Below are positions 1 to 39,991 of a stretch of DNA of 43,282 bases, piece after piece. The stretch comes from Candidatus Poseidoniales archaeon. GTDB lineage: Archaea; Thermoplasmatota; Poseidoniia; Poseidoniales; Thalassarchaeaceae. Position 1 is the stretch's first letter. Each line of letters starts with the position of its first letter. The DNA is taken from assembly GCA_028821675.1 (NCBI GenBank), contig JAPKFG010000003.1:1-43282 (forward strand), written 5' to 3'. Below the pieces are notes generated by a model that saw only the letters and a program-made list of their open reading frames with translations, was not told where the DNA came from and searched no databases. A program made the position numbers and the translations under genes.

Positions 1-866
1 TCGATGTCCAACAAGGGATGATTCAGCGATTCGTGAACGACCTCTTCTGGGCCACGGTCACTCTCACCATACAGCATCATGGTGACGCCGCCACCCTTCA
101 TGATGGTTCGAACATCTGCGAAGTCGAGATTGATGAGGCTGGGCAGGGTGATTGTTTCGACAATTCCCTTGACGATTTCAGCAATCAATTGGTCCATGAT
201 GCTGAAGGCTTCGTCCAAAGGCAAGTTGGGCACATAGTGCAGGAGTCGGTTGTTGTCCAGAACCAGCACGGCATCTGCTTCTTGGCGCAGCGCTTCCAAT
301 CCTTCCAGAGCGCGCAGCATTCTCTGACGTCGCTCAACTTGGAAAGGCGTGGTCACTACAGCGACCACCAATGCACCGGAACGCTTGGCTTCCTCCGCCA
401 CAATCGGTGCGATTCCGGTTCCAGTTCCACCGCCTAGTCCAGCAGTGATGAAAACAAGGTCTGCTCCAGAGACAATCTGGGAAATGACGTCTCGTCCCGC
501 CTCGGCACACTTTCGTCCGGTGGAAGGGTCACCTCCAGCACCCAATCCTCGGGTGATGTGACGCCCGACCAGCAGTTTCTGCAGAGCTCGGGTGTGGTCA
601 AGATGTTGCTTGTCGGTGTTGATGGCGACTGTGATGGCACCTTCAACGCCAAGATGGGTGATTCTGTTCATCGTGTTGTTGCCTGAACCGCCACAACCGC
701 AGATGAGAATTCGTGGATCAGGGACACCAAAATTGGAGACATCCTCGTTGAGCAATGCTGTGGATTGATTGCTATTCAAGTCGCGCTTCAATTCGCCCAC
801 CAATTCTTCGTAGGCTGGTCCTAGCGGAGTCCCAGACCCCTTTTCAGTCACTTGTTCCCCATCCAT
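1..866 (-). CDS. ftsZ: Cell division GTPase FtsZ, FtsZ2-type; 3' end runs off the window
   Basis: Manual minus-strand translation from ATG 866: [10 protein letters not shown]...[19 protein letters not shown]...AINTDKQHL...[15 protein letters not shown]...[30 protein letters not shown]. Tubulin/FtsZ GGGTGTG signature present. GNNT and MDQ.IAE..KG..ETIT.PSLINLD resemble archaeal FtsZ2. Absent from the ORF track because there is no stop in the window. Confidence 0.97.
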
Positions 867-5778: not shown

Positions 5779-5857
5779 GAGTCCATTGTGAACGTCATTC
5801 CCTCGCGCACAAGGGTCGAAGACCCTTTAGGAGGAGCAAGCGGCAGTGTGTACCAAC

Positions 5858-8800
5858 ATGGAGGATAGTACGCGTATCATTTTGGCAGCGCCCCGCGCTC
5901 GAGATCGAACCTCTGTGGCACTCGTCCTCGTCCTAATTCTTCCAATGCTGACTCCTTTCATGGCCGTAGAGGCCGCTCAAGTTCGGGCTGAAGATTTCGG
6001 GATTGTCGCTGAACTCCACGATGTTCTGGCGACCCGTGACTTGATGCTTGACAGTGACCAGATTGAATTACAGGCTGAGAATTCTCTTTCGCCGGTTCGC
6101 AATGGAGTACGTTCCATCGGTTCTCAGGATCCGTTAACTCACATAGATACAGCTCTGGATGGGTTGGTTGTCCAACCCTCCGCTCCAATGGGGGTTGATC
6201 ATCCCAAACCGATTGACATCTTGCTAGGTGATGATGCCCCACCCGGTTTGGTTGACACGATTTGGGGGACATTGGTCAATCTCACCGACTACATCATTTG
6301 GTCAGAATATCAAGCACAGAACAATGGACCCAACCACGAGAAATTCACGGTTGTCCCATTCTCATCGTCTCTACTGAGTCTGTTCAGCCAAGATCCATTG
6401 ATGCATGAAATCGATATCGATGGCGATGATGATCCGAATACACTCACTGTGGAAAACCCTGACATTCGTGTCGGTTTGACAATCGGTTTCGATGCATCCC
6501 CCGGAGTCGGGTGGGGTGTCATGGGCTCTCCACTCCCGACTCAATTGTGGTTGGAACCAACGATTGAATATCGAGTCGAAGTCATCAATCCATCCGCCCA
6601 AATTTGGAGTGTGATGGAAACCTTGGAAGTCGCTTTGATGAAACCCTTCGCTTACGGAATCAATCCAACTGCATCGGGTGAATCATACGTTTGGTTGATT
6701 GATTCACACTTCACCATCCCACCGACCGATTGGGCCCTCCAAGTAGGATTTGAACGATTCTGGTTTGATTTATCTTCAGCAGGAACTGAAGTATTGTCTG
6801 CATTGGCTTTGCTAGCCTCAGGATTTTCAGGTACGCCTGGTAACTCAACAGACACAGGAATCACTATTGCTGCACTCTCTGCACCTATTTCCATCCAAAT
6901 AGACAATGATGGACAAACTCAGTGTCCACCACATTACCAACCCAATGCGTATCACCTCAACGCCTCTTGGAGCCACGATTGTCGAATTGGTGTTGGGTTT
7001 GGTTACGGTCATTTCGCACCAGTAGACAGCAACAATAACAGGGAACTCTGGGAGTTGTCCTATCTTGAAGTCGGAGTCCACCCCAATTCAACTGCATACC
7101 GATTGCCAGCGATTGTTGATTTGACGATTCGAACGGACAACGTCCTTCCGACCGGTTCGGGTACAATCGGTGAAGATGGTCTTACATCAATCGAATATTA
7201 TGCTGATGAGCGTGCTGATTTGTGGCTGCATTTCCATGAGAATAAAAGTGCCTTCAGGGAGAGTTCATCCGAACCCTACGGCAATGTCAGTGAAACCTTG
7301 GTCTGGCTGCGTGGTATGCCTTCTGGGACGATGACACCGCTGGAAATTGAACGATGTTTCCAGATGTTGGGAAGTGCTTCCCAGCCCGAACTTCCAGGGC
7401 AATTGCCAAGTCGTCTATCGTTGATTCTCGGCATCAAGAATTTCACTCGCGATTCAACACCGAACGTCAATGACCCAACGCTCCCCATCGACCCTCAAAA
7501 TCCACCCAATACTTTGGTGCTGTTACGTTCAACACAATCGGTCACATCGTTGGAGTATGTTTCTTGGTTTCAACGCGAGGGTGTTGAAACAGATTATCGA
7601 ATGACACGGATGAATGCAGAAAATTTGCCCAAAGGTCTCCTTCTCTACGGAGATTTCTGGCTCGGTGGTAGCGATGAGCAAGAGGTGGGGACATTAGACG
7701 ACAGCCTCGATATTTTCTCCAAGATTCTCGATGTGACGATTCTCGCTGTTGTCGATCTCTTCATTGACGTCTCAAACATCATCAACAGCATCCCCAATGC
7801 TCTGGTCGATGTGATTAGTGGCAGTACGGGCAGTGCTACACAAGGGACTTCAATCCATCTAGAGTTGCTCACCCATTTCGAAGTGGGCCGTCAACCCATG
7901 CCCATAGGTCTTCTTCAATTGTCGATGGGTTCAACCGATTTTCCGATTGCTTATGGCCCACATTTGCTGTTGGCCGATGACAAGAGTACGACGGTTGTTC
8001 AAGGTCGAAATGGAGAGGTCGACAAACTGGTCCCAATCTCCATGAGTTTGCATCATGAAGGACTTCACTCACTCCACATCATCGATGATGCCGCGGCTCA
8101 ATCTCAGCAGATTTCGATGGGTGCAATTGGCGGCGACCCATTGCGAGTTATCTTCCTTGAACATCATGATGATGAATTTGGGAACATAGATATTCCAAAC
8201 AGCGATTTCCAATACGTCTACCTCTCTGACCATCCAGCTTCTCTTGACATCAACGTCACAGAATCCGAACTCACCTTCACCTCGGATCGGGACATCGTCG
8301 AAGTCGTTTATGCGGGTCGCGAAGGACAGCAAAGACAGGTCTTGGACATCGACATGTTGCCCGGCAATTTCACGATGGCAATTGGTGATGACGTCTCTTG
8401 GATATCTCAGACCCCAATCGGCTCTCTGTCTTTGATGATTTCAAACGCCACTGATCCCAAGACCATGGATGGTGATCATTTCCTCTTCATGCAAGACCAA
8501 GATGCTGGCGAAGCCACGCTATCTGCCCGCGTACACGGAATCACGGAAGTGGGCTTCCTCGGTGCGGAGATGCCCGGCGTTACTGGTGAAGCTGGTCGTG
8601 GAACTGGATTCCTCGTTGGACCGGGTGATTCTCCATTCCACGCGGTGATTTTGGATCAGACGACTCACGAATCACCAGCCGACGGATTGACAGCTCACGT
8701 TCTCATCGATCCTTTGCCCTCAAATATCGCACTTGAGGTGCCACAAGGTGGTGTTGGGGAAGCCAGTGCTCTGGATGTCCCACAATTCACCACCGACGAA

Positions 8801-10261
8801 GGCCTTGCAGGCATCGCATTCTTCCTTGCTGGATTCACTGATTTTGGACAAAGTGTGAATGGAATGCTTGGAGAATTGGTGACCAGCGTCACCGGTGGTG
8901 CAATCGACGATCAACGATCAGATTTCTCATTCGGCGTTGAACTGGATGCCGACCAGAGTTTCGATCTCGTCATCGATGCACAACAAGGTCGAATGGCGCT
9001 TGATGAACCGGAATGGTTGCATGGTATTTCGATGGAGGCAGACCTCGCAGAGGACAACCACACCGCCTTCAGAGCGCGTGTCTGGTTGCCTAATCTCGCG
9101 CCGACCATCGATCTTTCAATCAATTATCAGAATCTCACCGTGACAGATCGTTGGGATATCGACATCGAATTGGATGGTTGGGTTCCTGCGAATCCAGAAT
9201 TCATGATCGAGGTCAACAATTACAACGGTCGCGACCTACATCTCATGCTGCTCGGATTTGAACCGGGTCAATCCACTGATTTGAAGATTGAATCACAGAT
9301 TACCACCGATTATCGCCCAGTTGTCCCACAATTGTCAATTTTCAGCAATTACGAGATGAGCCGATCGTTGGATGCGATTCACGTCACATTGCTGGACCGA
9401 ACCGAATCCACTCGATACGAACTGCTACTGCAAGGCATTCCCGAGCAATTGGACATGACTGCATCTTTGGGGTCCACACTCTCAGTTGGCATGGAAGCAG
9501 AAGACCCCGGCCAAACAGGCCTTTCGATTGATTCACTGATGCTCCAGATGAACCGGTTCAATGCAGGGAAATGGTGGCCAGCAACGGTATTCTTGCATGA
9601 ACTCCCCCGGCAGATGAATCTGACGACTGCACCCTCCTCAGTATTCGACATCACGAAACCAGTCAGTTTCCAAGGAATGTCGACCTTGATTTTCTCATCA
9701 TCGGGCCCCGGAATGGATTTGTTCATTTCGACTACCGGTCGGGCGGTTGAATCTCGTGGCGATAGTTTGCTGCTGGCGCAGAACCTTGCCAGCCACATGA
9801 GCATTGAGCCGACCGAAGATTTCGGTCTGCGGGTGATGAGCAGTGGTGATGGTATTGAACGCCTCTATCTGCGTCAAAACGACGTTCCTACCCAGCCCGG
9901 GGTATGGCTGGAACAATTGGAAGCTGCAGGTGAGAATCTCAAGAGTGCAACGATTCACCTGAGTTATCTCGGTAGCGCGTACCCAATCGTCAAGATTGAG
10001 GATGTTCGTGGCGGTCGTATCATTGCCAATGCTCGGGCGTCCGTAGATATCGGTGAATTCTCATTTGACGGTCGAGCTGTATTGATTGATGCACAGGTCA
10101 CCGGTGGCATTCCAACAGGCACCACGCTCGGTGTCAATGGTTTGGCATCCGACCTCTCGCTACTCAATTTGATGGGCACGGATGCCCAAACCACTCACTA
10201 TCTCTTGCCTGAGCCGCTAACTACGGCCATCGCCACGGGAGTGGCCACATTGATGGGGTGA
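5858..10261 (+). CDS. Giant (~1467 aa) exported acidic protein of unknown function
   Basis: 4.4-kb ORF with signal-peptide-like N-terminus (VALVLVLILPMLTPFMAVEA), beta-strand-like alternation and no recognised catalytic motif. ATG 5858 chosen over GTG 5846. Confidence 0.85.
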   Translation: MEDSTRIILAAPRARDRTSVALVLVLILPMLTPFMAVEAAQVRAEDFGIVAELHDVLATRDLMLDSDQIELQAENSLSPVRNGVRSIGSQDPLTHIDTALDGLVVQPSAPMGVDHPKPIDILLGDDAPPGLVDTIWGTLVNLTDYIIWSEYQAQNNGPNHEKFTVVPFSSSLLSLFSQDPLMHEIDIDGDDDPNTLTVENPDIRVGLTIGFDASPGVGWGVMGSPLPTQLWLEPTIEYRVEVINPSAQIWSVMETLEVALMKPFAYGINPTASGESYVWLIDSHFTIPPTDWALQVGFERFWFDLSSAGTEVLSALALLASGFSGTPGNSTDTGITIAALSAPISIQIDNDGQTQCPPHYQPNAYHLNASWSHDCRIGVGFGYGHFAPVDSNNNRELWELSYLEVGVHPNSTAYRLPAIVDLTIRTDNVLPTGSGTIGEDGLTSIEYYADERADLWLHFHENKSAFRESSSEPYGNVSETLVWLRGMPSGTMTPLEIERCFQMLGSASQPELPGQLPSRLSLILGIKNFTRDSTPNVNDPTLPIDPQNPPNTLVLLRSTQSVTSLEYVSWFQREGVETDYRMTRMNAENLPKGLLLYGDFWLGGSDEQEVGTLDDSLDIFSKILDVTILAVVDLFIDVSNIINSIPNALVDVISGSTGSATQGTSIHLELLTHFEVGRQPMPIGLLQLSMGSTDFPIAYGPHLLLADDKSTTVVQGRNGEVDKLVPISMSLHHEGLHSLHIIDDAAAQSQQISMGAIGGDPLRVIFLEHHDDEFGNIDIPNSDFQYVYLSDHPASLDINVTESELTFTSDRDIVEVVYAGREGQQRQVLDIDMLPGNFTMAIGDDVSWISQTPIGSLSLMISNATDPKTMDGDHFLFMQDQDAGEATLSARVHGITEVGFLGAEMPGVTGEAGRGTGFLVGPGDSPFHAVILDQTTHESPADGLTAHVLIDPLPSNIALEVPQGGVGEASALDVPQFTTDEGLAGIAFFLAGFTDFGQSVNGMLGELVTSVTGGAIDDQRSDFSFGVELDADQSFDLVIDAQQGRMALDEPEWLHGISMEADLAEDNHTAFRARVWLPNLAPTIDLSINYQNLTVTDRWDIDIELDGWVPANPEFMIEVNNYNGRDLHLMLLGFEPGQSTDLKIESQITTDYRPVVPQLSIFSNYEMSRSLDAIHVTLLDRTESTRYELLLQGIPEQLDMTASLGSTLSVGMEAEDPGQTGLSIDSLMLQMNRFNAGKWWPATVFLHELPRQMNLTTAPSSVFDITKPVSFQGMSTLIFSSSGPGMDLFISTTGRAVESRGDSLLLAQNLASHMSIEPTEDFGLRVMSSGDGIERLYLRQNDVPTQPGVWLEQLEAAGENLKSATIHLSYLGSAYPIVKIEDVRGGRIIANARASVDIGEFSFDGRAVLIDAQVTGGIPTGTTLGVNGLASDLSLLNLMGTDAQTTHYLLPEPLTTAIATGVATLMG

Positions 10262-32684: not shown

Positions 32685-34475
32685 TCAAGACGCCGATTCC
32701 CGATGTTTGAGTACTCGACTGGCAAACAAGCCTGCGATGAGCAAGAGCACCAGGTCTGGTGCAAAGCCAGATACTGAGCCAATGACCTCTGGGTTCGCTG
32801 CCCCGATTAGGAGGAATGCCTCATTATTACCCTCGTCACGTTCAGAAATCGAGTCATCAGGGTCAACCATGACACGTATGTCAAATTCTCCCGCCGTTAA
32901 CAGTGTGATATTCACAACAACTCGCTCTTGTTGATCAATGAGGGACCCCGTACTGATTGCAACCGAATTCAAGGTTGTCCATTCAGTCATTGAATCACGA
33001 CTCGCTGGAGCACTTTCAACTCGAACTACGACGCTTCCAGAGTAGACTTCGTTGGTGTCGATGTAGGCTTCAAGTTGAACTGAATCTTGCGAACCAGCTC
33101 GTACAACGAGACGGTCAAGCGATGCATCCGATATGGAGAAGTCAAGCCCCGGTAAGATGAGGAAATGTGAAGCCGGCGTAGTGACCGTATTTCCCGCAGT
33201 ATCGACAAGTGTTGTTCGTAGAGAAAGGAATTGCCCGGCCCGAGTCGTCCAATCGATTGCAGCGGAGAGTGAGTTTGAGGTCCCTGAACCTACACTGAGC
33301 CAATCAGAAGAGATGTCAGGTATTGTACCCGCTCCATTGGAATCAAATCCATATTCGATACTACATGAGGCGACGTCAATTCCAGAATTCGCATCGGTTG
33401 CATCGATGCTAATCGCCACTTGGCCACTCAGGGAATCTGTGAGTTCCGGAAGAATCCATCCCCCAGCTACAGGTGCTGAACGATCAATCATCATTGTTAC
33501 ATCGAGTGAGTCCCCGATATTGCTGACTCTATCCACGGCACGGAATTGAATCGTTCTCACACCTTCGTCCAAACTCATAGATCCAGAACCTGCAGACCCG
33601 ATATCAGTCCATTCATCGGTGCTATCGCGCACGTGGTAGGTAGCAATCCCCGATCCATCGTTATCGGTTGCTCCACTGGATAAACCGTTGAAAATTAGGG
33701 TTGTTGCATCATTCCAACTTCCTGGTGCCACTGAAAGCGAAGGCGTTCCGACCTCAGGCCCGCTGCGATCGATTCCAATGTGGATGGAGGTCTGTGCTGA
33801 ATTCCCGCCTTCATCAAACACCGATAGAACCGGATTCCATGTTCCCTCTGTCAAGTCACCGGGAGACCATGCCCAAGAATTGAGAAGTGTACTTGGCCCA
33901 TCTTGGGGGGGATTTCCTGAACCGGGGACATTCGTGAGCGTCGCATGAGAGAGGTGAGAATCTGAGCCATTCCAATCGAAATTCATGGTTCCAGTTTCCG
34001 CTGTGGTGAACCATGCTCGGCTGATTGTCGAAGAACCATCTCCAATCACCGCTCCAGTTGTACTCAATGAGAGACTGGTGGGTGCTGTGTTGTCGATGAT
34101 GAAGGTTGGGCTCATCACCCATCCCGTTGTGGTTGAATTGGTAAAGGTCCCTTCAATTCTCAATTGATAATCGCCATCACTGTGTGAACTGGTGTCCCAA
34201 GCGGATAACCAAGGCGCATCGGTCACATTGGCGACTGGGGACCATGTAGCCCCATCTGAGACCTCGATATTGATGTAATCCATGTCGATAACATTGGTCA
34301 TGAGAATCGTGTATGTTCCAGAGACAACCTGATTGATATTAGGTCCTCCACTGAAGTCCAAATCATCGCTTCGACCTGACGATGCATCAACTGTCATCCA
34401 AGCCCCATGAGGAACCGCACACAGCAGAATCACCACGAAAGTGGAGACAAAGACACGGCGAGAAAGCATCGGCAC
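32685..34475 (-). CDS. Surface protein with Ig-like repeats, a CARDB domain and a C-terminal anchor
   Basis: Signal peptide; repeats ending IDNTAP / IDRSGP / IDRSAP; WDT...DG.Y; VDPDDSISERDEGNN; C-terminal VSGF + hydrophobic + basic. Start is GTG 34475 or ATG 34469. Confidence 0.87.
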   Translation of the reverse strand: MPMLSRRVFVSTFVVILLCAVPHGAWMTVDASSGRSDDLDFSGGPNINQVVSGTYTILMTNVIDMDYINIEVSDGATWSPVANVTDAPWLSAWDTSSHSDGDYQLRIEGTFTNSTTTGWVMSPTFIIDNTAPTSLSLSTTGAVIGDGSSTISRAWFTTAETGTMNFDWNGSDSHLSHATLTNVPGSGNPPQDGPSTLLNSWAWSPGDLTEGTWNPVLSVFDEGGNSAQTSIHIGIDRSGPEVGTPSLSVAPGSWNDATTLIFNGLSSGATDNDGSGIATYHVRDSTDEWTDIGSAGSGSMSLDEGVRTIQFRAVDRVSNIGDSLDVTMMIDRSAPVAGGWILPELTDSLSGQVAISIDATDANSGIDVASCSIEYGFDSNGAGTIPDISSDWLSVGSGTSNSLSAAIDWTTRAGQFLSLRTTLVDTAGNTVTTPASHFLILPGLDFSISDASLDRLVVRAGSQDSVQLEAYIDTNEVYSGSVVVRVESAPASRDSMTEWTTLNSVAISTGSLIDQQERVVVNITLLTAGEFDIRVMVDPDDSISERDEGNNEAFLLIGAANPEVIGSVSGFAPDLVLLLIAGLFASRVLKHRESAS

Positions 34476-34525
34476 CAATCCTCGCACAATATGCACCGCC
34501 CTTCAAGGCTTTCCAATGGGGCCCG

Positions 34526-37359: not shown

Positions 37360-37983
37360 ATGTCCGTTCTGCGCAGTCAAAAAACGATGAGCGTTGTCAT
37401 GGCGATACTTTTCGTATCGATGGCCATGCCAGGGTGTCTCTCTCTGGTGATTGGACGGGAAATGATGGAAAGTGCCAGAGGATTTCCGGAGGTCCGTGAA
37501 ATGAGTACACCCTTCGATCTTTCACACACATTCGTCATCGATGGTACTGAAGTAATTCCCACCCAAGTTCAGAAAACGATTACTGAACAGATTTCGATTG
37601 ATCACACTGTTCAGGAAATCATTATCAATTTCCAAACATCTGTAAATTATTACGCAGGTGAGTCAGATCAGCGTTATGTCCATGTTGAACTATTGTGGTG
37701 TGATGACAGTGGCGCCAATTGTGATACGTCCGATCCGATTTACGAAGTGCTGGCCGACAATGGCTCCTATCCGCAGACACGGACAGAATTGAATTGTAAT
37801 TTGGATTCATGCGACAGCGGTCTGTGGCGCTTGACTGTAGATGGTCGAGGTATGGGCACAGATACGGGCCTTGGTTTGCTTGATTTCCAAGATTCCTGGG
37901 TGCTTCGCGTCACCGTGATACGTCCCTGTCTCGCTTTCCCAGAAAGCCCTGAGGAATGTACACCCACGGTCGACTTTGAGTGA
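37360..37983 (+). CDS. Putative lipoprotein of unknown function
   Basis: Hydrophobic stretch followed by lipobox-like MPGC; acidic, Cys-rich mature part. Confidence 0.75.
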   Translation: MSVLRSQKTMSVVMAILFVSMAMPGCLSLVIGREMMESARGFPEVREMSTPFDLSHTFVIDGTEVIPTQVQKTITEQISIDHTVQEIIINFQTSVNYYAGESDQRYVHVELLWCDDSGANCDTSDPIYEVLADNGSYPQTRTELNCNLDSCDSGLWRLTVDGRGMGTDTGLGLLDFQDSWVLRVTVIRPCLAFPESPEECTPTVDFE

Positions 37984-39213
37984 TTAGACCAAACTCTGCG
38001 GACACATTTTCCGTCGCGAACAATTGCGACACTTACCTTTTCTTTCGTGGTTACGCTGTGCTCCACCCTCAACCATAAGGCGCTGAATTTCTTGTATTGA
38101 ATTCGCTAAATCAGCCTTCGCTAAATCATTCCATGGAACCGTAAACAAAGCCTCGCCCCCATAGCGTAGAATCCCATACTCAGGCATAGTGTCAGTCGTA
38201 GTACTCACCAGATGAAGATAGGCCAGTAATTGCATCCGATGACTATCATGTGGTTCGGCAGGAATCTTACCGGTCTTTTGTTCGACCGGGATGTATTGAT
38301 TGTCAATCTTCACGATTTGATCTGGTCGCCCTCGTACCCCAATCTCTTCATCGACGAGTAACGCAGCACTTTCTCCCGCATCATCACTGTAGGCTAAGAT
38401 GTCATTCTTTGCCAATCCAGTGTTTTTTCTTGCATCATCAGCCCCTCGTTCCGATGTCAGCACCCTGTGTAATTGCCATGATGTAAACAGCAACCATGCC
38501 AATGTGGCCACTATGAGAGCAAACGTCATAATGGTTCTATTTTGCGCCCAGTAAATCGCCAAACCGTGCAACGCAACGGCAATTGACGCCAATAACAATC
38601 GAGCTTCTGTGACTCCGCCTTTCCCGAAGTCACTGTCTTCTTCTGAATCAAACCCTGGATCGAATGGTGACATTATTTCTTCACTTTGCAATCCACTATT
38701 GCCGATGATTGGGGGTTGGGCCAATCCAAAAGGCCACCCTAACCATCGTCGCCAAGGCAAGGAGATGAGTATGATTGCCAACACCAGCCAAACCGCAGCC
38801 AACATGATGAGATAACGCCCCATGTCCTGAATGAATTCCTCAGGAATCGTGCCTTCACTGACGAAGAAGAAGGCTGCGGAATCGGCCGAAAGTGCGCATA
38901 ACACTGTAATCCACCAGGACCAAATTAGCAACTCACGCGAAACGTGCTCTTCGGATAGTTTGTATTCCTGCATTTTATTGTGAATTTGGTCGTGTGCAAG
39001 CATGCCTTTCTCAATCGCTTCACCTTCTCCACTAACACCGGCTTTCGACAATTGCCACGACACTGGGCAGTAGGTGTGCCGTTCCAGATCGGATGCAGAA
39101 ACGGGTAGAGGAAATCCCTTCAAATTCGTCCAATAACCGTCCTTTCGTTGTTTTCCTTCAGATATTGTTCCTGAAAGGTCCAAGGCGACTTCAACCGATT
39201 TATTCCCGCCCAT
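37984..39213 (-). CDS. Solo Cas4-like PD-(D/E)XK nuclease with four inserted transmembrane helices
   Basis: SASDLERHTYCP, G...H, GRPD, PVEQKTG, QLLAY, C-terminal CRNC-x5-C; four hydrophobic segments in between. Start is ATG 39213 or 39231. Confidence 0.88.
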   Translation of the reverse strand: MGGNKSVEVALDLSGTISEGKQRKDGYWTNLKGFPLPVSASDLERHTYCPVSWQLSKAGVSGEGEAIEKGMLAHDQIHNKMQEYKLSEEHVSRELLIWSWWITVLCALSADSAAFFFVSEGTIPEEFIQDMGRYLIMLAAVWLVLAIILISLPWRRWLGWPFGLAQPPIIGNSGLQSEEIMSPFDPGFDSEEDSDFGKGGVTEARLLLASIAVALHGLAIYWAQNRTIMTFALIVATLAWLLFTSWQLHRVLTSERGADDARKNTGLAKNDILAYSDDAGESAALLVDEEIGVRGRPDQIVKIDNQYIPVEQKTGKIPAEPHDSHRMQLLAYLHLVSTTTDTMPEYGILRYGGEALFTVPWNDLAKADLANSIQEIQRLMVEGGAQRNHERKGKCRNCSRRKMCPQSLV

Positions 39214-39382
39214 GGGGGAGAGAGAATCCATCGAAAGATAAGCATTCTTCCGTCATGTCTCGCTACTGCACTTTCTATTCACTATCGACCTTCTATTCGT
39301 GTGACTGCGTTGAAAAATCTCTCGTGCGCGAGCGAAGCGGTTATGAATAGGGGGTGGGTGGCGAGGCCGCTGAGGCAACATC

Positions 39383-39991
39383 ATGACCGATTCAATGCTA
39401 GTTCCTCATGAAACCTACGAGGTTCACAAGGTTCACATTGGTGCACTCCAGAAGAGTGCGGACATGAAACCCTTCCTCAGTGATGAACAAGGAGATGGCT
39501 CAGGTCTACATTTGATTGATTTGGAACATACCGATTCTCGAATGCGCATTGTATCCCAATTCCTCAATCGATACGACCCAAGTCGTATTCTTGTCGTCAG
39601 TGCACGACAGTATGGTCAGCGCCCTGCTCGTATGTTCGCTCAGTCAATCGGCGCCAAGCACATTGTTGGCCGATTCATTCCAGGCACGTTGACCAACCCC
39701 CTTCTTCGAACTTACATCGAGCCCGAACTCATCGTAGTGACCGACCCACAGGCGGATCAACAGTCACTCTCCGAAGCGGTCAGCAGTGGCATGCCAGTCG
39801 TCGCCATCTGTGATGCTAACAACACCCTTCGAAATGTTGATCTCTGCTTGCCAGCGAACAACAAGGGTCGCCAGAGTCTCTCCTTGATTTACTGGCTTCT
39901 TTCCCGTGAAGTTCTCAAGGCTCGCGGCACTATGGATGACGACACGTGGGCTACCATGCAAGACGTCGCCGATTGGGAATCCACTTTCTGA
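39383..39991 (+). CDS. rps2: 30S ribosomal protein S2 (uS2)
   Basis: VHIG..QKSADM, SARQYGQRP, GRFIPGTLTNP, TDP.AD.Q, VDL..PANNKGR.SL.LIYWLL.RE. Confidence 0.97.
   Translation: MTDSMLVPHETYEVHKVHIGALQKSADMKPFLSDEQGDGSGLHLIDLEHTDSRMRIVSQFLNRYDPSRILVVSARQYGQRPARMFAQSIGAKHIVGRFIPGTLTNPLLRTYIEPELIVVTDPQADQQSLSEAVSSGMPVVAICDANNTLRNVDLCLPANNKGRQSLSLIYWLLSREVLKARGTMDDDTWATMQDVADWESTF

Follow-up and report, generated by a model that had tools for sequence, protein, structure and literature searches.

Why does a nuclease that carries the signature residues of Cas4, a contiguous soluble domain in its CRISPR-associated form, have four hydrophobic segments in the middle of its chain? The question is raised by a gene on the reverse strand of contig JAPKFG010000003.1 (GenBank assembly GCA_028821675.1) from a Candidatus Poseidoniales archaeon of the family Thalassarchaeaceae, for which a stretch of 43,282 nucleotides (positions 1 to 43,282, hereafter the window) was analysed. 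An earlier interpretation made from the letters of this DNA (the sequence-only reading) had proposed a solo Cas4-like nuclease embedded in the membrane. Our analysis confirms the observation and supports the structural part of this reading, and we place a probability of roughly 0.6 on an active Cas4-type nuclease that is held at the cytoplasmic face of the membrane and serves in housekeeping DNA-end processing. Judged by its sequence, its residues, and its predicted fold, the nuclease belongs to the Cas4 family (PF01930, TIGR00372, COG1468), of the solo kind, and departs from that family in two properties, the contiguous soluble domain and the linkage to cas genes.

The Cas4 signature residues occur in two blocks, and the N-terminal motif does lie apart from the nuclease core, as the sequence-only reading had described: about 190 residues with four hydrophobic helices separate H80 from D304, instead of the contiguous soluble domain of ~160–220 residues that defines Cas4. 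In an alignment of 68 family members at 21–89% identity (A1), the N-terminal motif SASDLERHTYCP (residues 43–56) holds the predicted iron-sulfur (Fe-S) ligand C55 and is followed by G76 and the metal ligand H80. The core contains GRPD (D304), E317-x-K319, Q334xxxY338 and a family-specific R393-N-H395. Invariant columns are G301, P303, D304, K319, P324, S330, H331, Q334, Y338, G353, Y357, R393, H395, C401, C404, and C410, while S45, A46, D48, E50, Y54, C55, P56, W59, G76, H80, and E317 reach a conservation of 90% or more. The full Cas4 catalytic set (His, Asp, Glu-x-Lys, Gln-x3-Tyr) is retained, together with the pattern of one N-terminal and three C-terminal cysteines that had been read from the sequence, and C401, C404, and C410 probably partner C55 as ligands of a [4Fe-4S] cluster. 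The remaining cysteine, C112, is within helix 1. The invariant R393-x-H395, which appears as R-N/S-H in relatives, precedes the cysteine triad and flanks the putative cluster.

Profile searches, suggested at the outset as a check, support the family assignment. The nuclease scores 39.1 bits against Pfam Cas_Cas4 (cut-off 22.7) and 39.8 bits against PDDEXK_1 (cut-off 22), each covering residues 296–411 only, and 65.5 against NCBIfam TIGR00372 (cas4), barely above the cut-off of 65. Both Cas4 profiles are matched over their C-terminal two thirds only, by residues 290/300–411 of the nuclease. PADLOC returns generic Cas4, Cas1-fusion, and DruK nuclease-domain matches only. Against sequences in the Protein Data Bank (PDB), the A1 profile finds 4r5q (E = 4.4e-8), 8d3l (5.6e-8), 4ic1 (7.6e-7), and 7mi4 (8.5e-4); the C-terminal piece aligns significantly and the N-terminal piece weakly, both to the corresponding parts of the chains, and in the HMMER alignment to 4r5q two cysteines of the triad pair with its C-terminal cysteine pair. 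Relatives in public records are named “Dna2/Cas4 domain-containing protein” or “CRISPR-associated protein Cas4”.

The two blocks appear to fold back into an intact Cas4-type domain, in agreement with the initial proposal and with the conservation of the catalytic residues. An AlphaFold2 model built on A1 (mean predicted local distance difference test, pLDDT, 83.6; predicted template modelling score, pTM, 0.79) superposes on the Cas4-Cas1 fusion structures 7mi4 and 7mi5 and on the type I-C Cas4 8d3l with Z-scores of 19.4, 19.0, and 18.9, over 184–187 residues at 2.8–3.0 Å and from model residues 38, 36, and 25 to 415 in one or other of the three. On 7mi4_A (Z 19.4, root-mean-square deviation 2.8 Å), 184 residues of model positions 38..415 are matched to chain positions 5..200, and on 8d3l_I (Z 18.9) 187 residues are matched. 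The aligned part of these targets is practically the entire Cas4 domain, so that in the model the N- and C-terminal pieces together form a single Cas4 domain, and superposition would bring the four cysteine ligands together. Top ranks in a Foldseek search are Dna2 (E = 6e-5), SSO0001, and type I-C Cas4 (range 6e-5 to 3e-4). Low confidence is confined to the loop 160–205, with pLDDT of 45–61 over residues 161–210. The model helix that bears H80 (71–125) passes unbroken into membrane helix 1, and helix 4 (232–271) leaves the membrane and enters the core; with both helices continuous with the domain, the active site would be held near the membrane. A homodimer prediction from two copies with A1 returned “no answer”, with a score of 0.00 against a mark of 0.42.

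The four segments quoted in the sequence-only reading coincide with those found by Kyte-Doolittle hydropathy (19-residue window, threshold > 1.6), namely residues 106–125, 136–162, 212–230, and 232–254, with peaks from 1.64 to 2.82. They are arranged as two hairpins, of which the first carries a conserved W148 in helix 2 and the second a conserved W246. By profile-profile comparison, hairpins 1 and 2 match each other with a probability of 96.8% (E = 2e-10, 58 columns), a value to be read with the caveat that this composition is common to membrane helices; at the level of sequence, the two hairpins appear to be repeats of each other. Family members differ in the length of the loop between the hairpins, which varies between 12 and 53 residues. 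In Poseidoniales, a specific motif (LPWRxxLGxPFGLAQPP) directly follows helix 2 on the predicted cytoplasmic side and precedes an acidic, probably disordered stretch of low model confidence, and this element may bind a partner or lie at the membrane interface. D116 (38884–38886, helix 1) and H222 (38566–38568, helix 3) are conserved in Poseidoniales only and take a similar depth in the repeat alignment; they may form an intramembrane polar contact.

The distribution of charges suggests how the chain is oriented. Averaged over A1, the 15 residues that precede helix 1 contain 3.9 lysine plus arginine (K+R) and the 15 that follow helix 4 contain 3.4, while loop 1 has 0.46 K+R versus 2.34 aspartate plus glutamate (D+E), and the first 15 residues of loop 2 have 2.18 K+R versus 0.53 D+E. 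Since K+R is enriched in the N-terminal flank, loop 2, and the C-terminal flank and depleted in loop 1, as the positive-inside rule would have it, both termini and all four cysteines should be cytoplasmic (N-in, C-in). Fe-S clusters need assembly in the cytoplasm, which agrees with this topology.

A different view of the same segments is that they form a buried helical domain of a soluble protein, and some observations fit it: helix 1 is marginally hydrophobic, and a structural aligner matches residues 85–273 to long soluble helical hairpins at Z ~10. This view is at odds with hydropathy peaks of up to 2.8 and with a charge bias that fits a membrane topology, and it fares worse when the relatives are considered. 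Among 327 full-length single-chain relatives, defined by a match to the N-terminal profile as well as to the C-terminal one, raw counts of hydrophobic peaks are 4 in 228, 2 in 50, 8 in 40, 3 in 6, 7 in 1, and 0 in 2. All seven odd cases have one extra sub-threshold peak (1.18–1.41) where a helix is expected, which brings the corrected count to 2, 4, or 8 in 325 of the 327, to 0 in two, and to a convincingly odd number in none; a stricter motif filter (138 of 271 proteins) leaves the pattern unchanged. The sequence-only reading had argued that an even number of helices keeps all cysteines on one side of the membrane and had named an odd number as evidence to the contrary; the even counts, the positive-inside charges, and the split forms described below all speak for its argument. 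Two relatives (P0257 and P0269, ~190–198 amino acids) are soluble single chains without a membrane helix that keep the R-N/S-H motif, and their state may be either ancestral or a secondary loss.

The split forms bear most directly on the nature of the segments. Both genomes inspected from a Thermoplasmatota family coded f14 carry the gene in split form. In the first (L094, 2914–3707), an open reading frame (ORF) of 87 amino acids for the N-terminal half overlaps a 177-amino-acid ORF for the C-terminal half by 4 nucleotides; in the second (L095, 2641–3440), ORFs of 90 and 166 amino acids lie 27 nucleotides apart with the same neighbours. The N-half consists of the Cas4 N-terminal motif and one hydrophobic helix at its C-terminus, and the C-half of one hydrophobic helix at its N-terminus and the core. 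The pair adjoins genes for aRF1/pelota-like and ABCE1-like proteins. With one terminal membrane helix each, the halves have the design of classic membrane anchors, which counters the soluble-bundle reading, named beforehand as an outcome that would speak against a membrane protein; together with the even helix numbers, the hydrophobic helices with which the first chain ends and the second begins make a soluble domain highly improbable. In organisms with split halves, the Fe-S cluster and the active site would thus span two polypeptides.

The same design extends to bacteria. Many of the ~175-amino-acid matches in a representative search share the C-half design, and the few that are named come from Anaerolineae. 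A metagenome scan with the single protein P0254 gave no matches, and 80 metagenome loci (L098–L177) around bacterial-type C-halves were retrieved with query P0340. With the archaeal N-piece profile, a same-strand upstream ORF of ~78 amino acids is found in 63 of these 80 loci (E < 1e-3), and every one of the 63 N-halves ends in a hydrophobic helix; 14 of the 17 loci without a match have less than 1,100 bases of upstream sequence. The bacterial N-half matches positions 3–44 of Pfam Cas_Cas4 and the C-half positions 53–158, which places the gene break exactly at the site of the archaeal insertion. Following the halves on the same strand are an NAD kinase gene (nadK, in 66 of 80 loci), a gene for a zinc-ribbon membrane protein, and a gene for RecN (TIGR00634, 468 bits versus a cut-off of 408), in an array of which L126:1662–6510 is an example. 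The halves are more than 600 nucleotides apart in 27 of the 63 loci, and in the four wide-gap loci that were read, a 209-amino-acid HEAT-like protein with sub-threshold matches to PDS5/Cnd1 is encoded between them, followed by a 149-amino-acid membrane protein in two. An apparent pair of tandem C-half paralogues per bacterial locus was rejected as an artefact of single-linkage clustering, because the core profile is matched by only one C-half in each locus.

These features set the nuclease apart from its characterised relatives. It shares with CRISPR Cas4 (PF01930, TIGR00372; 7mi4/7mi5, 8d3l, 4ic1 SSO0001, and 4r5q Pcal_0546) the fold, at Z-scores from 19.4 to 9.9, the catalytic residues with the one-plus-three cysteines, and profile scores above the cut-offs. 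What CRISPR Cas4 lacks is the interruption of the domain by membrane helices (2, 4, or 8 of them) or its division between two anchored chains, and an additional invariant R-N/S-H motif stands before the cysteine triad. The phylogeny, which had been recommended as a check, gives the same division: in a core tree of 89 rows and 138 columns, built by a quick method with limited resolution, a branch that has 99% support in the Shimodaira-Hasegawa-like approximate likelihood ratio test (SH-aLRT) separates all fused, split, and soluble members from 12 canonical Cas4 proteins of the same phylum. Within the family, the number of helices changed several times.

Like the soluble solo-Cas4 proteins of archaea (Methanosarcina mazei, PMC12501428; branches in the main text of PMC5704561), the gene lies off CRISPR loci and is mostly vertically inherited, as that class of genes is delimited in the main text of PMC5704561; unlike them, the family is membrane-anchored, though the two soluble relatives mentioned above belong to it. 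The nuclease domains of AddB/AdnAB, Dna2, EXO5, and MGME1 have the fold in common (Z 9 to 15) and act on DNA ends and flaps, whereas these enzymes are soluble, mostly fused to or partnered with helicases, free of membrane segments, and only weakly similar in sequence. The iron-staple idea is shared by AddB, Dna2, and EXO5. The Kiwa protein KwaA resembles the nuclease by idea only, in combining a multi-helix membrane module with a cytoplasmic effector, and Kiwa, a defence system found in variable islands, is made up of two proteins (preprint 10.1101/2023.02.26.530102), in contrast to the single nuclease at a conserved core locus described here. In the full-text literature searched, with subscription journals outside its scope, we found no description of a membrane-embedded or split membrane-anchored Cas4, and hence no sign that the architecture is an already characterised family, which the sequence-only reading had considered. 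The word “transmembrane” is absent from the main text of PMC5704561, and both “transmembrane” and “membrane” are absent from the main text of PMC12501428. New here are the split-gene forms, the bacterial relatives together with the operon in which they lie, the locus shared across the order, and the clean deletion of the gene.

Table 1. Coordinates of the nuclease gene, its predicted parts, and the adjoining features in the window.
Feature	Position	Strand	Remarks	Basis
Membrane-anchored Cas4-type nuclease (predicted), whole ORF	37984..39231	-	415 amino acids; coordinates include the stop codon	ORF list; Pfam and NCBIfam scans
N-terminal Cas4 piece	38980..39105	-	residues 43–84	A1 conserved columns; aligns to N-terminal stretch of 4r5q, 8d3l
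Predicted membrane hairpin 1	38755..38931	-	residues 101–159: helix 1, short acidic outer loop, helix 2	hydropathy; model helices 71–125, 131–157
Predicted cytoplasmic loop 2	38599..38754	-	residues 160–211	A1 consensus; charge counts
Predicted membrane hairpin 2	38470..38598	-	residues 212–254: helices 3 and 4	hydropathy; model helices 207–228, 232–271
C-terminal Cas4 / PD-(D/E)XK core	37987..38409	-	residues 275–415	Pfam, NCBIfam, PADLOC; invariant columns; PDB matches 4r5q, 8d3l, 4ic1
C-terminal cysteine triad	38002..38031	-	C401-x2-C404-x5-C410	invariant in 68/68 A1 sequences
Divergent intergenic region, nuclease gene / rps2	39232..39382	.	151 bp	ORF coordinates
rps2, ribosomal protein S2, divergent neighbour	39383..39991	+		PF00318, E = 1.5e-20
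Convergent ORF with lipoprotein-like N-terminus (…MPGCLS…)	37360..37983	+	207 amino acids	ORF list

The nuclease gene is probably translated from Met7 (39213), the end coordinate that the sequence-only reading had used, to give a 409-amino-acid form, since most close homologues have 409 amino acids and begin at the equivalent position and the ESM Atlas record of the nuclease begins at residue 7; Met1 is also a possible start. The Atlas look-up gave the nuclease’s own Thermoplasmatota clusters and an unverified bacterial candidate (score 0.93). The divergent arrangement with rps2 is as first reported. A tRNA dihydrouridine synthase gene (Dus) comes after rps2, and a 951-amino-acid CARDB-domain surface protein is also encoded among the window neighbours. 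On the other side, the stop codons of the nuclease gene and the lipoprotein-like ORF abut; this ORF matches no Pfam, NCBIfam, or PADLOC family above the cut-off. Elsewhere, the window contains an operon of the complex I type and genes for a subtilase, for ribosomal proteins, and for translation, besides giant ORFs that lack Pfam matches. Two large ORFs at 5846–10261 (1471 amino acids) and 32685–34496 (603 amino acids), with no Pfam match at E 1e-5, adjoin the subtilase with CARDB domains and other surface-protein-like genes.

The locus has a traceable history. With a protein query, the architecture is present in 129 of 201 Poseidoniales genomes at 37–98% identity, a conservation well beyond chance, and the alignment query agrees. 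By family, the gene is carried by 99 of 99, 2 of 2, and, in the Thalassarchaeaceae, 27 of 99 genomes; in the last, six genera have it throughout, while seven genera, those with small genomes (1.3–1.6 Mb), lack it altogether. The divergent pairing with rps2 is seen in all four loci inspected from the two other Poseidoniales families, where a CARDB protein gene is followed by the nuclease gene (reverse), rps2 (forward), Dus, and a MarR-like gene, with Dus inverted in the three loci of the family coded f3. The pairing is also seen in 9 of 12 other Thalassarchaeaceae loci, and rps2 is present in rearranged order in two more. The lipoprotein-like gene is kept beside the nuclease gene in Poseidoniales and also where the latter is missing: in two genomes of the small-genome Thalassarchaeaceae genera (L191, G027:C1; L193, G007:C25; one of them a single contig), it is the direct neighbour of rps2 at a distance of 76–80 nucleotides, showing that the nuclease gene is cleanly absent from the syntenic site. 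The order shared across families points to one old locus that was later subject to deletion.

In the phylum as a whole, 216 of the 301 genomes that are at least 85% complete have a match to the A1 profile (E ≤ 1e-8), a number that is an upper bound for the membrane family because the weaker matches may be canonical Cas4; one genome with a weaker match was inspected and encodes a canonical Cas4-Cas1 fusion. One family of 40 mostly complete genomes has two matches only. Counting by Pfam PF01930 is insensitive (14 of 50 genomes versus 50 of 50 by alignment query in the same family) and was not used to score absence. Named contigs that carry the gene belong to Thermoplasmata, where the 8-helix forms are found on large contigs, the DHVE2 group, Aciduliprofundum, Marine Group III, Methanomassiliicoccales, and Poseidoniia.

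In its own genome (1.6 Mb, 142 contigs, 91% complete), the nuclease gene is the sole Cas_Cas4 match, in keeping with the solo gene that had been proposed. There is likewise no CRISPR adaptation module next to it: cas1 (PF01867) was not found in the genome (cas2 was not searched for), and a tandem-repeat scan of the window found no repeats and hence no repeat array, so the absence reported earlier holds for cas1 and the array. Like its position on the far side of the 99% branch, this separates the nuclease from CRISPR Cas4. The gene is vertically inherited, single-copy, and of a housekeeping type in Thermoplasmatota, dispensable in streamlined lineages, and outside CRISPR-Cas.

Conserved gene neighbourhoods are of several kinds. 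In a survey of 93 archaeal loci, no cluster of neighbours is found in more than 25, and synteny is specific to lineages and made up of core genes. The neighbours are NTPase_1, Trm1, RpoL, and TruD in Marine Group III and AsnC and FeoB in DHVE2, while one further lineage has GlmS, a GlmU-like enzyme, and a protein with a TPD domain. In Marine Group III (L028–L085), the two-helix form (~278 amino acids) is always preceded on the same strand by proteins of ~1778 and 148 amino acids, neither of which has a Pfam match. Transcription of the nuclease gene is weakly hinted at by contigs from three RNA libraries of seawater from three studies, which cover parts of the gene at 90–100% identity (for example 39063–39202 without differences; Logan contigs from four runs with small word shares); such libraries may contain DNA, the contigs carry no information on strand or level, and gaps in their cover have no meaning.

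The roles put forward in the sequence-only reading, namely DNA uptake, surveillance at entry, and chromosome tethering, are conjectures, and the vertical, housekeeping-like setting of the gene suits maintenance better than defence. A tethered nuclease could act in defence by degrading foreign linear DNA, from viruses or plasmids, once a free end comes through at the inner face of the membrane, independently of CRISPR and in lineages of which most have no CRISPR-Cas. The predicted location fits this role, relatives of Cas4 act in defence, PADLOC reports Cas4 and DruK matches, cas1 is missing from the genome searched, and a multiplied hairpin could sense a disturbance of the membrane. Solo Cas4 is also over-represented in small CRISPR-less genomes, for which the main text of PMC5704561 suggests uncharacterised roles in defence or repair. 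The genomic record argues otherwise: the locus beside rps2 is fixed across the whole order, the gene is single-copy, strongly conserved, and vertical, no cas, defence, or mobile-element genes occur among the neighbours in the 93 archaeal loci, and none of the 26 pattern matches that A1 yielded on viral contigs was confirmed as a relative. Such stability is unusual for defence genes, and there is no evident way in which self DNA would be spared. We consider surveillance at entry possible but unlikely.

The same membrane position with a cytoplasmic active site would suit an enzyme that processes imported DNA, taken up for transformation or as food, by degrading one strand or trimming ends, and 5′-3′ single-strand exonuclease activities of Cas4 enzymes are reported in the main text of PMC5704561. 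Neither ComEC (PF03772) nor FtsK/SpoIIIE (PF01580) gave a match in the 91%-complete genome, and the loci surveyed show no conserved linkage to genes for transporters or pili. We also know of no DNA uptake system in Poseidoniales, and a helper function in uptake appears improbable.

The adjacent genes suggest one more alternative, namely that the protein acts on RNA at the membrane or is an Fe-S (redox) sensor or scaffold in which the hairpins are the working part. Its neighbours are often genes for translation and tRNA modification (rps2 and Dus in the window; in Marine Group III, Trm1, TruD, and RpoL; in the split family, the aRF1/pelota-like and ABCE1-like genes), the hairpins are multiplied and have conserved tryptophans, and the invariant R393-x-H395 stands beside the putative cluster. 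All catalytic residues of a DNA nuclease are nonetheless invariant or nearly so, the closest structures are all DNA enzymes, and any gene that is old and passed on vertically can be expected to lie beside core genes. A role apart from DNA is thus quite improbable and is ranked last, after genome maintenance, defence at entry, and DNA uptake in that order.

Genome maintenance is favoured because the gene is single-copy, vertically inherited, and at a core locus, has no linkage to defence genes, and is near recN in its bacterial relatives. In the mechanism that we propose, the protein would be a complete PD-(D/E)XK nuclease of the Cas4 family, predicted to be active and to hold a [4Fe-4S] cluster, with two copies of a transmembrane hairpin inserted between the His-bearing helix and the first β-strand of the core. 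The reassembled catalytic domain and its four cysteine ligands would face the cytoplasm, and helices 1 and 4 may extend as rigid stalks into the domain and keep the active site close to the inner membrane surface. Activity of this kind is suggested by relatives of the AddB, Dna2, and EXO5 type, which process DNA ends and flaps. The likely substrate would be single-stranded DNA or DNA ends, restricted to DNA at the membrane, and the enzyme may serve genome maintenance, for example in repair, recombination, or the removal of stray DNA ends. Of these steps, the biological role is the weakest.

Several points weigh against this explanation. The topology is read from hydropathy, from the bias in charge, and from what the split genes imply; helix 1 is weakly hydrophobic (peak 1.64) and contains a conserved Asp; and the convergence of the cysteines is suggested by superposition of the model. 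Archaeal neighbours are often translation or tRNA genes, which would indicate housekeeping and not DNA specifically, leaving an RNA substrate possible. The pairing of nadK and recN is common in bacteria, and the proximity to recN may reflect no more than gene order shared by a single lineage. The gene has been lost in whole genera and so is not essential. Finally, genome maintenance does not explain why hairpins were multiplied up to eight helices.

This last point, together with the PFGLAQPP motif and the Asp116/His222 pair, suggests that the membrane part has a function beyond anchoring, one that none of the readings above explains. A speculative possibility, to which we give little weight, is that the hairpin array is a working part that senses or gates an event at the membrane and positions the Fe-S-stapled nuclease accordingly, which would make the family an undescribed class of membrane-coupled DNA-processing enzymes found in Thermoplasmatota and Chloroflexota-like bacteria. 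Candidate events would be an entering DNA end, the deformation of the membrane at division, or a site of virus entry. With hairpins as sensors, the cluster would bridge two membrane-anchored segments and, in the split forms, two polypeptides.

If the nuclease is anchored as predicted, the membrane provides a spatial handle on enzyme function, confining its action to the inner membrane face. The family also offers a natural series, from soluble chains and pairs of one-helix half-genes to fused forms with two, four, and eight helices, and this series supplies ready-made constructs for studying how an iron-sulfur “staple” is assembled across an insertion or between two chains. Poseidoniales, an uncultured order, are among the most abundant archaea of the surface ocean. 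That they conserve a predicted membrane nuclease bears on how these cells deal with DNA damage, foreign DNA, and contacts between chromosome and membrane, and its clean loss in lineages with small genomes implies that its function is dispensable under genome streamlining.

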